A stretch of 64,000 nucleotides of DNA, from the NCBI GenBank assembly GCA_020402945.1, contig JADBYQ010000010.1, positions 631-64,630 of the forward strand. Reading direction: 5' to 3'. The notes under the pieces are model-generated. The model was not told where the DNA came from. It worked only from the letters and a program-made list of their open reading frames with translations, and did no database searches. The first letter of the stretch is position 1; every line of letters begins with the position of its first letter. Positions 5,225 through 20,562 of this stretch are shown in pieces. The position numbers and the translations under genes were made by a program. This stretch comes from Cytophagales bacterium (GTDB lineage: Bacteria; Bacteroidota; Bacteroidia; Cytophagales; Cyclobacteriaceae).

Positions 5225-7851
5225 TAATTCAACAATTCTTTGGCTTTCACTAAAACGCGATCCAACCCATTACTATTTTTCCCTCCGGCCGTAGCAAAAA
5301 AGGGTTGCCCTCCCCCACCGCCATCAATTTCCTTGGCCAGTTCTTTTACCATATTTCCAGCATGATACTTTTTTGTTGCTTCTAGCTTTTCACCAATCAT
5401 CACAGCAACCTGCGGTTTACCTTCAATGTCAGCAGCAAGTATCATTAACAGATCGTCAAATTGATTGCGCAGTGCATAGGCGATATTTTTTAAGGCATCC
5501 GCATTGGGCACACTCACTCGCTCCAATACCAGCGTGCAACCATTGGATTTTACAGCTTTAGTGGCAAGTATATCTTTCAGCGTATTGGCTTGTTGTTGGT
5601 AAATGATTTCCAATTTTTTTTCAAGGCCGTGCTTTTCGTCTACCAACGCTTGAATAGACGCAACGACATCTTTCGGGTTTTTGAGTTGTGCTTTGATCTG
5701 CCCCATCTCGTTGTAAAAACTGTTCAGGTATTCAAATGCTCCATCTGCTGTAACGGCTTCAATTCTGCGAACACCGGCAGCCACCGAACTCTCGGAAACA
5801 ATTTTTAGCAATCCGATATTTCCTGTGGCCTTCACATGAGTACCTCCACAAAGCTCGACCGAGAATTTCGGGTCAAATGTTATCACTCTAACAAACTCTC
5901 CGTATTTCTCACCAAACAATGCCATTGCGCCAAGCGACTTTGCTTTTTCAATGGGCACATTTCGTTGTTCATTCAACTGAATGTTCTCTCTGATTTTTTC
6001 ATTGACGATGGTTTCTACTCTCGAAACTTCTTCGCTTGTCATGGCTCCAAAATGAGAGAAATCAAAACGCAAGATCTTGTCATTCACCAAAGAACCTTTT
6101 TGCTCCACGTGCTTTCCTAGTACTTCTCGCAGTGCAGCATGAAGTAAATGCGTGGCCGAGTGATTAGCCATGGAAAGCCTGCGCTGATGAACATTTACTT
6201 TGGCTTGAACTACTCCTTCTAAATTGGCAGGAAGTTTCTCCACCCAGTGAACGATCAGATCATTCTCTTTCTTGGTATCAACGACTGTAATTTTTTCCTC
6301 TCCTATTTCCAGTGTACCTGTATCTCCCACCTGGCCTCCGCTCTCTGCATAGAATGGAGTTTTATCTAGCACCAACTGAAATAACTCTTTATTCTTTTGT
6401 TTTACTTTTCGGTAGCGTAAAATTTTTGACGTTGAAGTCAATTCATCGTATCCAATAAATTCTGGCCTGCCTGCCTGACCGGCAGGCAGGTCGCCTTCCA
6501 ACACCACCACCCAGTCTCCGGTTTCTTTGGCTGCATCGGCTTTCGAACGTGTTTTTTGTTTGGCCATTTCTTCAATGAACCCTTTTTCATCCACCAAAAA
6601 ACCACGTTCTCGCGCGATGAGCGAAGTTAGATCGAATGGAAAGCCGAAGGTATCATACAGTTCAAAAGCTTGCTCTCCAGAAATTGTCTTGTCAAAATTC
6701 TCAATCCGTTTCAAACCTTTTTCCAGTGTTCTCAAAAAAGAAATCTCTTCTTCATGCACAACCTTACTCACATACTCTAGTTGTTGGTGCAACTCCGGAA
6801 ACACATCTTTAAGCTGCAGCGCCAGCAAAGGCACCAAGCGATGGATGAATGGTTCTTTAAAATTCAAATAAGAAAATCCATAGCGCACTGCTCTCCTCAA
6901 AATTCTTCTGATCACATAGCCCGCACCTGTATTACTCGGCAACTGCCCATCGGAAATCGCAAAGGATACAGCACGAATATGATCGGCTATTACCCGGATC
7001 GCAATATCTGTTTTGATATTGTCTCCATATTTCACATTGGCATTGATGGCTATGAAATCAATCAACGGACTAAATACATCGGTATCATAGTTTGATGTCT
7101 TGGCCTGAATGGCCATGCACAACCGTTCGAAGCCCATTCCGGTATCTACATGTTTATCCGGCAGTGGCACCAAAGCACCAGAAGCTAGCCGGTTAAATTG
7201 TATGAACACCAAATTCCAAATCTCCACAACTTGCGGATGATCGCTATTGACTAAATCGCGACCTGCTTTCTTCATTCTTTCTTCCTCTGAACGAAGATCA
7301 ATGTGAATCTCTGAGCACGGGCCACATGGGCCGCTTTCGCCCATCTCCCAAAAATTGTCCTTTTTATTACCGTGGAGAATGCGATCCTCTTGTACAAAAC
7401 TGCGCCATAGGTCTTTGGCTTCTTCGTCCACGGGAAGGTTATCTCCTTTGTCGCCACCAAAAACGGTTACATACAACCTGTCTTTTGGCAGTCCATAGAC
7501 TTCCGTCAATAGCTCCCATGCCCAACTGATTGCCTCCTTCTTAAAGTAATCACCAAAGCTCCAGTTGCCAAGCATTTCGAACATGGTGTGGTGGTAGGTG
7601 TCCAGCCCCACATCTTCCAGGTCATTGTGCTTTCCGCTTACCCTAAGGCACTTTTGTGTGTCGGCTACACGTCTGTTAGTCGAAACTGAATTGCCCAAAA
7701 AGTAGTCCTTAAACTGTACCATGCCCGAGTTGGTAAACAGCAGCGAAGGGTCATTTTTAAGCACTAAAGGGGCAGAAGGAACGATTTTATGGCCTTTACT
7801 TTCAAAGAAATCCAGAAATTTTTGGCGGACGATTGCCGATGTCATATGCAT
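5224..7851 (-). CDS. alaS: Alanine--tRNA ligase
   Basis: LLFTNSGMVQFK, HHTMFEMLGNWSFGDYFK, TPFYAESGGQVGD, NHSATHLLH, ELCGGTHV and GGGGGQPFFA motifs; stop overlaps the gatB GTG start. Confidence 0.98.
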   Translation of the reverse strand: MHMTSAIVRQKFLDFFESKGHKIVPSAPLVLKNDPSLLFTNSGMVQFKDYFLGNSVSTNRRVADTQKCLRVSGKHNDLEDVGLDTYHHTMFEMLGNWSFGDYFKKEAISWAWELLTEVYGLPKDRLYVTVFGGDKGDNLPVDEEAKDLWRSFVQEDRILHGNKKDNFWEMGESGPCGPCSEIHIDLRSEEERMKKAGRDLVNSDHPQVVEIWNLVFIQFNRLASGALVPLPDKHVDTGMGFERLCMAIQAKTSNYDTDVFSPLIDFIAINANVKYGDNIKTDIAIRVIADHIRAVSFAISDGQLPSNTGAGYVIRRILRRAVRYGFSYLNFKEPFIHRLVPLLALQLKDVFPELHQQLEYVSKVVHEEEISFLRTLEKGLKRIENFDKTISGEQAFELYDTFGFPFDLTSLIARERGFLVDEKGFIEEMAKQKTRSKADAAKETGDWVVVLEGDLPAGQAGRPEFIGYDELTSTSKILRYRKVKQKNKELFQLVLDKTPFYAESGGQVGDTGTLEIGEEKITVVDTKKENDLIVHWVEKLPANLEGVVQAKVNVHQRRLSMANHSATHLLHAALREVLGKHVEQKGSLVNDKILRFDFSHFGAMTSEEVSRVETIVNEKIRENIQLNEQRNVPIEKAKSLGAMALFGEKYGEFVRVITFDPKFSVELCGGTHVKATGNIGLLKIVSESSVAAGVRRIEAVTADGAFEYLNSFYNEMGQIKAQLKNPKDVVASIQALVDEKHGLEKKLEIIYQQQANTLKDILATKAVKSNGCTLVLERVSVPNADALKNIAYALRNQFDDLLMILAADIEGKPQVAVMIGEKLEATKKYHAGNMVKELAKEIDGGGGGQPFFATAGGKNSNGLDRVLVKAKELLN
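6466..6490. repeat. Short palindromic element inside alaS (CCTGCCTGCC-TGACC-GGCAGGCAGG)
   Basis: Perfect 10 bp inverted repeat with a 5 nt loop; read in frame as part of EGD-LPAGQAG-RPEF. Confidence 0.8.
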
Positions 7852-10831: not shown

Positions 10832-12052
10832 ATGTCAAAAAAATCACTTCTATTATTTTGCCTTGCCCTCCTTGCTTTAATTGGACAGGCACAAGTCAAT
10901 TCAACGCTTATTCGATCTCACATCAAAATTCTTTCAAGCGATTCCCTGGAAGGTCGTGGCACTGGAACAGCTGGAGAAAAACTGGCAATTGCCTACATCC
11001 AATCGCAATGGAATAAGATCGGGCTATTGCCAAAAGGCGATGGAAAGTTATTTACCCAAAAATTCACTTTCAAAGGCGGAATTCATGGAACCGGTGAAGA
11101 GGGGACAGCTTACAATCTGGTTGGATTCATTGATAACCAAGCCGCCAACACAATTGTAATTGGTGCACACTTCGATCACCTCGGCTTGGGAAATCAAGGC
11201 AGCTCGTTGGATGCGAATCCGCAAAATAAAATACATAATGGCGCAGATGACAATGCATCAGGTGTTGCTGGTGTGATCGAATTGGCGCGGTATTTCCAAA
11301 TGAATAAAATCAAAGAGTCAACCAATTTTCTGTTCATCTGCTTCAGTGGCGAAGAGCTAGGGCTTTACGGTTCCAAGTACTTCACCGAGAATCCAACAAT
11401 TGACTTGACAAAGGTGAACTACATGATCAATATGGATATGATTGGCCGATTAGATCCTCAATCGAAAAATCTGGCGGTGAGTGGAACAGGAACGAGTGCC
11501 GCGTGGGAACCTCTTCTTAAAAAACTATCATCCGAAAAACTGTTGATAAAGACCGATTCAGCCGGAGTTGGGCCTTCAGATCACACTTCCTTTTATCTCA
11601 AAAATATTCCGGTGCTACATTTTTTTACAGGCTCCCATAGCGACTACCACAAACCATCGGATGACGCAGAAAAAATAAATTATGAGGGCGAAAAAGAAAT
11701 TCTTGAATTGATTATTCGCTTGGTTGAAAATCTTGACAAGCAACCAAAGCTTACTTTCCTTGCTACCAAAAATAAGTCGATGGGGTCGGCTCGTGCTTTT
11801 AAAGTTACCATGGGTGTGATGCCCAGTTACACGTCTAGCGAAGAGGGACTGAAGGTAGATGGCGTAACCGAAGGAAAGCCTGCTCAAAAAGCTGGTATTG
11901 CGGCAGGCGATGTGATCGTTCAGATTGCATCTTATCAAATAAAAGATATCCAGAGTTATATGGATGCATTAGGCAAATTTGAAAAAGGACAAGTAGTGCC
12001 GGTAAAACTAAAAAGGGAGAAAGAAATTATTACACTCAACGTTACCTTTTAA
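10832..12052 (+). CDS. M28 family aminopeptidase with C-terminal PDZ domain
   Basis: IGAHFDH, GADDNASG, FSGEELGL, NMDMIG, SDH and DYHKPSD; C-terminal MGVMP...PAQKAGI-GDVI PDZ. Confidence 0.92.
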   Translation: MSKKSLLLFCLALLALIGQAQVNSTLIRSHIKILSSDSLEGRGTGTAGEKLAIAYIQSQWNKIGLLPKGDGKLFTQKFTFKGGIHGTGEEGTAYNLVGFIDNQAANTIVIGAHFDHLGLGNQGSSLDANPQNKIHNGADDNASGVAGVIELARYFQMNKIKESTNFLFICFSGEELGLYGSKYFTENPTIDLTKVNYMINMDMIGRLDPQSKNLAVSGTGTSAAWEPLLKKLSSEKLLIKTDSAGVGPSDHTSFYLKNIPVLHFFTGSHSDYHKPSDDAEKINYEGEKEILELIIRLVENLDKQPKLTFLATKNKSMGSARAFKVTMGVMPSYTSSEEGLKVDGVTEGKPAQKAGIAAGDVIVQIASYQIKDIQSYMDALGKFEKGQVVPVKLKREKEIITLNVTF

Positions 12053-12074
12053 CGAGTTCAAACACGCGTAAATT

Positions 12075-12248
12075 GGGTGTATTTCAAATTATCGCAGTTA
12101 TTTTCTTCATTGCCCTCACCCATTTGAATTCTTCCATTCCTTATAGCTTGTAAGTCCCTCTCCCGAGGGAGAGGGGATGATGAACTGCGTGAACGTAGGA
12201 CCTCAATGGGGTGAGGGTAGAAAAGGCGCGTCAATTTGAAATACACCC
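12075..12248. mobile_element. MITE-like non-autonomous foldback element, 174 bp
   Basis: Perfect 16 bp terminal inverted repeats GGGTGTATTTCAAATT (12075-12090) and AATTTGAAATACACCC (12233-12248); identical 8 bp flanks CGTAAATT (12067-12074, 12249-12256); central hairpin CCCTCTCCC-GA-GGGAGAGGG (12156-12175). Confidence 0.85.
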
Positions 12249-12296
12249 CGTAAATTTGGAAGTTTGACAATCATTTTTAAAATCCATTTCTGACTC

Positions 12297-12304
12297 TATT
12301 TTTG
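12297..12304 (+). promoter_or_regulatory. Bacteroidota sigma-70 -7 element upstream of yebC
   Basis: TATTTTTG matches TAnnTTTG, 28 nt before the ATG. Confidence 0.55.
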
Positions 12305-12332
12305 CAGAAGAAAACAATCAATACAATTTGAC

Positions 12333-13040
12333 ATGGGACGCGTATTTGAAAAGAGAAAACATACCATGTTCGCTCGTTTTGACCGAATGGCCAAAGCGTT
12401 TACGCGAATAGGAAAAGATATTGCCATGGCCGTGAAAGCCAATGGCCCCAACCCAGATAACAATCCCAAGCTTCGAATGGCGATTCGAAATGCAAAGGGT
12501 GCGAATATGCCGAAAGATCGGGTTGATGCAGCTATCAAACGCGCATCTTCCAAAGAAGAAAAAGATTTTCAGGAAATAGTGTATGAAGGCTATGCCCCAC
12601 ACGGAGTGCCAGTGTTGGTAGAATGTGCTACTGACAATCCGACCCGAACGGTGGCAAATATCCGGTTGCAGTTCTCCAAAAATCATGGCACCATGGGCAA
12701 CTCCGGATCTGTCTCATTTATGTTTGAACGAAAGGGAGTATTTAAATTCGAACCATCTAAATTAAACTTAGATGAACTAGAATTAGACTTGATCGATGCT
12801 GGTGCGGAAGATATTCAACGGGACGCGGAAGAGACTGTCATCTACACCAAATTCACTGAGTTTGGCCATATGTCTAAATTCCTGGAATCTAAGAAGCTGG
12901 AGGCGAAAAGCTCTGAACTCAATTACATTCCCAACAGCACGAAAGAACTAACGGAGGCTGAGCAAGATGAGGTACTCAAGTGCATCGAAGCACTGGAAGC
13001 AGATGATGACGTGCAGAACGTTTATCATAATCTCGCTTAA
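12333..13040 (+). CDS. yebC: YebC/PmpR family DNA-binding transcriptional regulator
   Basis: MGRVFEKRK, NPKLRMAI-NAKGANMPKDRV, YEGYAPHGV, TDNPTRT and DDDVQNVYHN. Confidence 0.95.
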   Translation: MGRVFEKRKHTMFARFDRMAKAFTRIGKDIAMAVKANGPNPDNNPKLRMAIRNAKGANMPKDRVDAAIKRASSKEEKDFQEIVYEGYAPHGVPVLVECATDNPTRTVANIRLQFSKNHGTMGNSGSVSFMFERKGVFKFEPSKLNLDELELDLIDAGAEDIQRDAEETVIYTKFTEFGHMSKFLESKKLEAKSSELNYIPNSTKELTEAEQDEVLKCIEALEADDDVQNVYHNLA

Positions 13041-13049
13041 TAGATCAGT

Positions 13050-14279
13050 CGGAGAAAGTTTAATTTTTCTTCTTAGATAAAACGTCCAATTGACTTCCCT
13101 AGTGAGGTTGTCGTCTACCATACGATTATTGTATTGCTGTATAAGGGCTCTCAACCTTGCTTGCATCTCAGAAACCGTATCCGGTGGTACGTTCATTTCA
13201 TTATTCTTTAGAAATGGATCCGCTTTAAAATCAAAGAGCGCGATTGAATTCTGTCCATCAAATTGAAGAAGATAGTTCCCTTGAAAAAACTGGTAGGTAT
13301 TGTTTAGATAATTGAAGGCAAAAGGGCGGTCCTTGGAGCTAAATACATCGCGCCCAAACGCAACGTAGGGCTGATCATAACCCAAATAACCTAAGATGGA
13401 AGGCAAAATATCAACCTGCTGAACTAACTCATCCTTCATACCCATATCTTCTCGCCCCGGTTTATAAAAAATTAGGGGAATTGAAAAATAACCCCATACT
13501 GTATTGTATTGCGGATATTGAATTTCTTCAGTAGCATGATCTGCAGTGATCACAAATAGCGTATTTTTAAACCAATCCGCCTTAGCCGCTGTTTGAAAGA
13601 AACGCTTGAGCGCCCAATCTGAATATTCAATTGATCTATAAATCGGGAGTGAGCCGCCTTTAAATTTATCTTGATATTCTTCTGGCAACTGGTAAGGATG
13701 GTGAGAATACACCGTAAACAAGGTGGTAAAAAAAGGTTGCTTGAACTCACTCATCTTTTTGGGATAGTAATGAAGAAACTTCTCGTCCCAAATTCCCCAT
13801 ATCCCATCAAAGTCATCGTCATTACCATATTCACCTTTTCCAAAATAGTCGGCAAAACCACTTTGGTTGGCAAATGCATCAAAGCCCATTGATCCGTTGA
13901 AAGCGCCATGAAAAAAGGTAGTCTAATATGCTTTTTCCTTTAACAGAATCGGGAGGCTATTCAATTTGTTTCCCGAAAAATGCGAGAGCACATAAGGCAC
14001 TTCAATGGATGGAACAAAGCATATCGCAGAAAGCATTGCGTCAATCAGCTTGCGACCATTTGCCATTGAATACTTGAATGATCGGCTATGTGAAATACAG
14101 GCCACCCGCGGCAATGGTGAAGAATCGGTTGGCATCCATGCCCTGAGAAAACGCCCTGTTAAAAAGAAAAAAACTACTTTACTCGAAGAATAGAGTGCCC
14201 TGATTAACAATCTGCTGAGAACCAAAGCTAGATAGCTATTGCCACGAAGCTTGACTCGCCAAAATTGGCCAAAAGACAT
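13050..14279 (-). pseudogene. LTA-synthase/sulfatase family protein, decayed; the 3' end is approximate
   Basis: The family-like sequence FFHGAFNGSMGF...LFTVYSHHP...YSDWAL...VITADH is present. There is an in-frame TAG at 13923-13925 (KEKAY*TTFFHG), an apparent frameshift at the A7 run 14167-14173, and an N-terminal membrane segment joined directly to the catalytic domain near 14092-14096. Confidence 0.8.
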
Positions 14280-20336: not shown

Positions 20337-20562
20337 GAATTGAATTTTTTGGTGGCCAAATATAGCCTAATGACCAGTTCCATATGCGCGAACCTTTATA
20401 AAAGCGCGGTTTTAATGATAGATGGCAAACTAGATGCAATATCGGCTTGAAAGTCGCGGTCAAGCCCATTTTTCGAACCTCCCAAATTTTCAACACACCA
20501 ACAGCCAAATTCCTTTGCGATAAAAAATGAATTGGACTCTAAGAAAATCGGTCAAATACGGC

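Follow-up and report, generated by a model that had tools for sequence, protein, structure and literature searches.

The window, by which we mean the whole 64,000-nucleotide stretch of DNA analysed here, corresponds to positions 631-64630 of contig C2 of a freshwater Cytophagales MAG (G000, the source genome; 4.38 Mb, 136 contigs, 41.8% G+C). Genomes of the same genus are referred to below by G-numbers, and the loci or contigs that were compared by L-numbers. Between an M28 peptidase gene and a gene of the YebC/TACO1 family, the window holds an element of 174 bp (12075-12248), which is bounded by terminal inverted repeats (TIRs) and flanked by a target-site duplication (TSD). The features of this interval, in window coordinates, are the following.

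10832-12052, plus strand: M28 peptidase gene with a C-terminal PDZ domain (Pfam), the stop codon of which lies 22 nt before the element.
12067-12074, no strand: left copy of the 8-bp TSD, CGTAAATT (sequence reading and repeat finder), present once in the empty-site contigs L034-L038.
12075-12096, plus strand: left TIR, GGGTGTATTTCAAATTATCGCA, an 18/22 match to the end of an insertion sequence (IS, see below), with perfect pairing to the right end over its first 16 nt.
12075-12090, complement at 12233-12248: perfect TIR core, GGGTGTATTTCAAATT (repeat finder).
12113-12217, no strand: interior "cargo", a nested G-rich palindrome of the form CCCTCACCC...CCCTCTCCC-GA-GGGAGAGGG...GGGTGAGGG, without similarity to the IS interior.
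12113-12121 and 12209-12217: outer pair of the palindrome, CCCTCACCC and GGGTGAGGG, paired in the predicted fold.
12156-12175, no strand: central perfect 9+9 palindrome, CCCTCTCCC GA GGGAGAGGG (repeat finder).
12227-12248, minus strand: right TIR, inward reading GGGTGTATTTCAAATTGACGCG, matching either end of the 1254-bp IS at 21/22 positions.
12249-12256, no strand: right copy of the 8-bp TSD, CGTAAATT (sequence reading and repeat finder).
12297-12304, plus strand: TATTTTTG box upstream of yebC, 49 nt past the right end of the element and conserved in the closest relative (G001).
12333-13040, plus strand: YebC/TACO1-family gene (Pfam), the start codon of which lies 84 nt after the element.

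The 174-bp element and its surroundings

A first-pass annotation of this DNA had described TIRs that are perfect over 16 bp and extend to 21 bp with two mismatches, exact 8-bp direct flanks, and an interior that is itself a nested palindrome. The repeat finder returned 16/16 pairs for the TIRs and 19/21 when they were extended, at the coordinates that had been given; the flanks are indeed exact copies of CGTAAATT, and the TTTTCT segment, the outer pair and the central pair around -GA- were all found as described, TTTTCT/AGAAAA being also paired in the predicted fold. RNA folding, one of the checks that had been proposed, turns the whole element into one long hairpin of -80.5 kcal/mol (z = -10.0 against 200 shuffles), and the corresponding DNA fold reaches -41.5 kcal/mol (z = -8.9 against shuffles). 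The sole ORF across the element (12058-12270, minus strand, 70 aa, TTG start) had no match in a Pfam search, in agreement with the earlier statement that the element has no transposase. We are dealing with a sequence that is short and non-coding, has TIRs and a TSD with an empty site, is present in several copies, and has its termini and TSD length in common with an IS, all of them features by which a MITE is recognised.

As for the flanking region, the TATTTTTG box fits TAnnTTTG, the -7 promoter consensus of Bacteroidota known from Bacteroides, and on the strength of that consensus the box may be a putative yebC promoter; it was left intact by the insertion. A TTGACA hexamer lies 15 bp from the right end of the element. 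Several relatives (G001, G067, G020, G047 and G044) have an additional gene between the M28 peptidase and yebC, encoding a 287-aa PF04228 Zn-metallopeptidase, as seen when window 12053-12332 is compared with positions 953-1911 of L015 (G001:C14). This gene is absent from G000 (tblastn against the whole genome), and the M28-yebC interval also lacks it in G175 and in all empty-site contigs; its loss is older than the MITE insertion and unrelated to it. Because the PF04228 gene occupies their M28-yebC interval, the closest species representatives are uninformative with regard to the empty site. Farther downstream, the 3' end of yebC (plus strand) overlaps by 93 nt (12948-13040) the 3' end of a convergent 313-aa ORF with a sulfatase domain (minus strand, 12948-13889), in which the sulfatase match is limited to positions 111-301 of the Pfam profile, its C-terminal two-thirds.

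Empty sites, filled alleles and other copies

We looked for empty sites among public contigs whose YebC protein is identical to that of the window (exact-protein look-up). The filled allele was present in one NCBI record (GCA_020402915.1), while five independent contigs with an identical YebC (L034-L038, from JGI, ENA and Logan freshwater metagenomes of different samples) carry the empty allele, in which the M28-yebC spacer measures 98 nt versus 280 nt in the filled allele. When aligned to the window, all five read ...TCAAACACG CGTAAATT TGGAAG..., i.e. the 8-mer is present once and exactly 174+8 = 182 bp are missing, with flanks of 94-98% (left) and 99.0-99.8% (right) identity. It is these alleles, lacking exactly 174+8 bp, and not a statistical argument, that directly establish an insertion beyond chance. 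When the complete source genome was searched by BLAST with the element, a second full-length copy emerged at C59:647-820 (95.4% identical), and its site is empty in both G175 and G081, which read ...TCTATCCC GTAACGTA TAGAAC... with GTAACGTA present once, whereas G000 reads ATTAGGTA, the element, and then GTAAGGTA. The C59 copy would be an older insertion with a drifted duplication, which is consistent with the eight differences between the two G000 copies. The opposite possibility, that the "empty" alleles represent precise deletions, is unlikely, since one 8-mer remains at two different sites.

In G175 the same M28-yebC site is filled by an element that is identical at 174/174 positions. Overall, G175 and the window are 93.4% identical over 7 kb, and there are three differences in 12058-12500, none of them in the element; this near-identical filled allele points to a single recent insertion, probably shared through descent or recombination. 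Divergence from G175:C23 is mosaic within window 11900-12500, with 17 mismatches in 11900-12057 and only three in 12058-12500, and the boundary lies just left of the element. This pattern suggests recent recombination or gene flow that may have carried the filled allele between two GTDB species.

Of the 177 species that make up the genus, four contain the 174-bp subfamily, with two copies in G000, four in G175, two in G081 and four, all decayed, in G044, so that ten copies fall outside G000, in three other species, and most of these have 8-bp duplications of their own. Together the copies occupy six or more distinct sites. Independent exact 8-bp TSDs flank one copy in G175 (GGCCAATT) and two in G081 (AACGGAAG and AGGGATCC), the AGGGATCC copy being orthologous to one of the G175 copies. 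With only two copies, the source genome gives no sign of a burst of activity. Beyond this subfamily, a search of the genus for the terminus pattern yielded matches in 29 of 151 genomes, comprising pairs about 1.25 kb apart as well as many pairs 148-273 bp apart. The latter represent other MITE subfamilies of the genus, which have only the ~24-nt ends in common and are unrelated in their interiors, and among which exact 8-bp duplications were again found (TAATGGGG, TACCTAAC, TTCGCACG and GAATAACT). The 22-nt terminus is also found across Bacteroidota (Cytophagales, Chitinophagales, Bacteroidales and Sphingobacteriales), as are MITE subfamilies with the same termini. All IS and MITE insertions that we examined are intergenic, which may simply be a reflection of selection. 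Among the checks that the first-pass annotation had proposed were a genome-wide search for further copies of the element and its TIR and a search for an empty site in relatives, and both gave the outcome that it anticipated: there is a second copy in G000 with ten more in three species, and single-CGTAAATT alleles lacking the 182 bp were recovered from contigs with an identical YebC, in addition to the empty C59 site.

The partner insertion sequence and the interior palindrome

IS ends (GGGTGCATTTCAAATTGACGCG) were found at eight contig edges of G000, 120-160 nt from the edge. Four of these are end A, which continues into the ORF start MSKEEFLAVAEQRYDALQKLNQLDSFY..., and four are end B, which is the reverse complement of the ORF end (...RWTKRGAQNMLNLRVTHMNGQWDKVVKLVQTEFKAAA and the stop codon). 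Edges could be paired by their outer flanks with exact 8-bp TSDs in three cases, C28 with C128 (AAATTGAC), C69 with C96 (AATTAATC) and C75 with C55 (AATAAAAA). G000 carries at least four copies of an IS that has the termini of the element and makes 8-bp duplications. When the body of the IS was sought in the G000 assembly, only its last 37 codons at contig edges were found; the IS of about 1.25 kb is missing at these contig breaks because it is repeated and was dropped, the shortest contig of the assembly being 2548 bp. Complete copies could be retrieved from G131 and from Logan/ENA contigs; they show an IS of 1254 bp with inverted repeats (IRs) of 22-24 bp that run 5'-GGG...CCC-3'. In the single-contig genome G131, the copies are 1253-1254 bp long with a 363-aa ORF, and an exact 8-bp direct repeat (DR) was found at one of them. 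The first-pass annotation had asked for a transposase flanked by the terminal repeat of the element, and this IS, with the same 22-nt ends (21/22), answers that description.

In six of eight public contigs with a near-identical IS, the two ORFs, orfA of 67 aa and orfB of 328 aa, share an A10 run where they overlap, which puts orfB in the -1 frame, and two IS copies (among L085-L092 and L030) have A9 instead of A10. Single-ORF homologues of 391-392 aa (P0032 and P0041) read RRKKN across the position of the A-run, and a full-length transposase would be produced from the two-ORF copies if the reading frame slipped by -1 at the A10 run. Among the G000 copies, the one at C28 (C28:25088-25249) has a TAC-to-TAA nonsense change at orfA codon 27, while the copies at C69, C75 and C124 keep TAC. 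The G131 copies include an inverted pair (C1:753936-755188 and 1199740-1200993; L029 and L030) with swapped duplication halves: their left flanks, TAAACCAA and TTGGTTTA, are reverse complements of each other, and the same holds for the right flanks over 7 nt. Judged from these flanks, the swapped halves are the signature of an inversion of roughly 445 kb via recombination between the two copies.

The best match of the transposase is the NCBIfam model NF033572 (ISKra4), with E-values of 4e-56 to 2.5e-58 and 190-198 bits against a cut-off of 205, and the full-length single-ORF homologues likewise score 190-198 bits, under the same cut-off. For the 363-aa ORF of G131 the values are 4e-56 and 190.8 bits. 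The next NCBIfam match, ISLre2, reaches 105-116 bits, and in Pfam the transposase matches UPF0236 (PF06782) above the cut-off of that family. By its sequence the IS very likely belongs to the ISKra4 family, with a score just under the formal threshold. The first-pass annotation had put forward the IS1595 family, as an assignment still to be verified, on account of the 8-bp duplication; this suggestion fell, as no IS1595 model is among the Pfam and NCBIfam matches of the transposase, and an 8-bp TSD alone does not tell IS families apart. The ISKra4 family is the "p-MULT 4" group of prokaryotic Mutator-like transposases (Guerillot et al. 2014, PMC3942029). In elements of the p-MULT groups the IRs measure 18-39 bp and have a terminal C, the DRs are 8 or 9 bp long, and the ISMich2 group within p-MULT 4 has two ORFs, from which a -1 frameshift restores the full transposase (PMC3942029). 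The partner IS shows the same IR length, 8-bp DRs and two-ORF layout with a -1 shift, and, from gene organisation only, it can be assigned provisionally to the ISMich2 rather than the ISKra4 subgroup. For the ISKra4 group, insertion 13-17 bp upstream of the promoter -35 has been reported (PMC3942029); the TTGACA hexamer near the right end of the element recalls such targeting, but the five insertion sites revealed no common motif or spacing.

The interior of the element has a different distribution from its ends. The nested palindrome is free-standing, without IS ends and in a compact form of about 56 nt, at two places in G000 (C35:~20387-20442 and C96:~12623-12684), and other genomes contain compact forms or "extended" forms of about 110 nt with the spacing seen in the element; no outer TIRs were found around the free-standing extended palindromes of those genomes. 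Matches to the central motif CCCTCTCCC-NN-GGGAGAGGG were obtained in 57 of the 177 genomes of the genus, at 1-17 sites each, and the reversed control gave none. Since the interior is unrelated to the IS and the palindrome occurs on its own, the term "hairpin as cargo" used in the first-pass annotation is reasonable as a description.

Individual copies of the palindrome differ in their setting. At C35:20387-20449 (about 985-1047 of L082), a 63-nt palindrome, CCCCTCACCCC-TTC-CCCTCTCCC-GA-GGGAGAGGGG-...-GGGGTGAGGG, lies in frame in a Type ISP restriction-enzyme gene (PF18135), with TTTA on both sides in G000. The G041 orthologue, which is 97% identical, lacks it, as do G165, G020, G130 and G120, and in G143 and G132 related palindromes of other lengths are present at the same spot. 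At C96:12623-12684 (about 974-1035 of L083), a DUF559 endonuclease-like gene has a compact palindrome directly after its stop codon, and this palindrome overlaps the called ORF start of the next gene (amidohydrolase). In G170 (C128:7054-7571) there are five CCCTCTCCC-NN-GGGAGAGGG palindromes with a spacing of ~125 nt and loops alternating between AC and GT, which is a tandem array of a palindromic module with a period too long for a typical CRISPR array. The window itself also contains a perfect GC-rich palindrome, CCTGCCTGCCTGACCGGCAGGCAGG, at 6466-6490, whose sequence is unrelated to the CCCTCTCCC family. A tentative idea, to which we give rather less than even odds, is that the palindrome family could be an independent mobile RPE/REP-like element of Cytophagales that is able to sit in frame in genes, in which case the MITE would be a chimera of IS ends with a captured palindrome. 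If this is true, the palindrome gains a second, DDE-driven way to spread, a prokaryotic counterpart of cargo capture in the style of Pack-MULEs.

Proposed mobilisation, rival explanations and known systems

Taken as a whole, the sequence comparisons indicate, with a probability of about 0.93, that we have here a genuine MITE of recent insertion, which the resident ISKra4-family (Mutator-like) IS most likely mobilises in trans. The termini and the duplication length agree, G000 itself contains the IS, the element has inserted independently at several sites, and at two sites it is present in some genomes and absent from others; this upholds the core of the first-pass annotation, namely a recent non-autonomous TIR-plus-TSD insertion by DDE transposition. 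In the mechanism that we propose, the IS transposase, supplied in trans, would bind both terminal repeats of the element, excise or copy it, and integrate it at a staggered 8-bp cut, the repair of which would produce the CGTAAATT duplication. That the IS transposase is the mobilising enzyme, and that it is active, we infer. As to its origin, the element would most likely have arisen when two IS ends came to flank a dispersed G-rich palindrome, since such palindromes are dispersed on their own in the genus. The insertion in the 98-nt M28-yebC spacer was most probably neutral or nearly so.

One may also consider explanations in which the IS plays no part or a different one. The element could be a palindrome of the REP/BIME or RPE type, spread by a Y1 (RAYT-like) transposase or by some other route, with an incidental likeness to IS ends; the free-standing interior palindromes without TIRs would fit this, as would the Y1_Tnp homologues encoded in the genome. 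REP elements, however, lack 8-bp target duplications, whereas here there is one, proven by the empty site, and the 22-nt ends agree at 21/22 positions with the ends of a resident DDE IS that makes 8-bp duplications and are all that the sister MITE subfamilies have in common, which together make such an origin very improbable. Slightly less so, though still improbable, is that the element arose from the 1254-bp IS simply by internal deletion. This would readily account for the common termini, but similarity to the IS stops 22-24 nt in from each end, with none in the interior, which instead matches the dispersed palindrome family; because the similarity is confined to these ends, the element does not appear to be a deletion derivative. 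Nor did we see, in 177 genomes, any IS variant that has a palindromic interior between its ends together with a transposase gene. An assembly or binning artefact might come to mind, given a MAG of 136 contigs and two Logan contigs that break inside the element, but the identical filled allele at the same site in the independent G175 assembly (174/174) and in the NCBI record, and the presence of the element's ends on the very contigs that are broken inside it, reduce the chance of this to a negligible level.

A further suggestion would add to the MITE status of the element rather than replace it: that its structure, as RNA or DNA, has been co-opted for regulation in cis, acting as a transcription barrier for the M28 gene, as a stabiliser of its 3' end, or as a modulator of the yebC promoter. 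The very stable 174-nt hairpin, which begins 22 nt after the M28 stop and ends ~49 nt upstream of the TATTTTTG box, is in favour of such a role, and so is the invariance of the G-rich arms GGGTGAGGG and CCCTCACCC in the decayed G044 copies, whose TIRs erode. Against it, a terminator scan of the element region found no terminator-like site, and there is no T-run after the stem; a promoter scan gave one sigma-70-like site (12256-12283), no more than shuffles give. An Rfam scan of the element returned no family at threshold, only whalefall-1 (RF01762) with 17.3 bits against a gathering score of 37 (19.4 bits for the free-standing palindromes) and sub-threshold, chance-level matches to Antizyme_FSE and U2. 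Across ten copies the hairpin is kept in 90% of cells, and covariation is indistinguishable from shuffles (three double-sided changes versus a shuffled mean of 3.0). Moreover, since the insertion is polymorphic among near-identical strains, the element is dispensable. We regard co-option as unlikely, and nothing points to a role of the element beyond that of a mobile element. The influence on termination or mRNA stability that the first-pass annotation thought possible thus gains no support from these scans.

A MITE is in itself ordinary biology; what is less usual is how complete the case has become from sequence alone, with filled and empty alleles at two sites, the IS identified and the duplication length matching. 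A non-autonomous partner can now be assigned to the little-studied ISKra4/p-MULT 4 transposases in Bacteroidota, and the 22-nt signature GGGTGYATTTCAAATTGWCGCG marks IS and MITE copies across the phylum, which can help both in annotation and in accounting for the places where contigs of MAGs break. The IS and the MITE also form a natural substrate pair for trans-mobilisation and for frameshift-controlled transposase expression. The more unusual lead, however, is the family of cargo palindromes, including its in-frame copies in genes.

Known bacterial MITEs include Correia/NEMIS in Neisseria, RUP in Streptococcus pneumoniae and Nezha in cyanobacteria. Like these, the element is shorter than 300 bp, non-coding, intergenic, multi-copy and polymorphic among strains, it forms a long hairpin, and its TIRs and duplication length match those of a resident IS. 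Unlike them, its partner is an IS of the ISKra4 family, its copy number is low (two per genome), and its interior is a separately dispersed nested palindrome that is not derived from the IS. Our literature search found no description of MITEs for the ISKra4 family. Within ISKra4/p-MULT 4, the partner IS is ISMich2-like: at 1254 bp it falls in the reported size range (from 1.1 kb; PMC3942029), it likewise has IRs of ~22-24 bp ending in C, 8-bp DRs and a Bacteroidetes host, and it has two overlapping ORFs from which a -1 shift on the A-run would restore a transposase of ~391 aa. The 174-bp element differs from the members of this group in having no coding part at all. Among eukaryotes, the closest parallel is offered by MULE-derived MITEs and Pack-MULEs, the transposase of which belongs to the same superfamily as that of the partner IS (PMC3942029), and which likewise have TIRs, duplications of ~8-9 bp and foreign, non-transposase cargo, and lie near gene ends; the analogy is one of architecture only, and, unlike Pack-MULEs, the element is prokaryotic and much smaller, with a palindromic repeat as cargo instead of a gene fragment. 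With REP/BIME sequences and Rickettsia palindromic elements (RPE), finally, it is only the interior that can be compared, as a GC-rich nested palindrome at 1-17 sites per genome with one in-frame genic copy; taken by itself, this palindrome might count as REP/BIME-like. The interior is unrelated in sequence to the known REPs, mobility of the palindrome being seen at one site only, and the whole element, unlike REP/BIME, has a target duplication and TIRs of the IS type.
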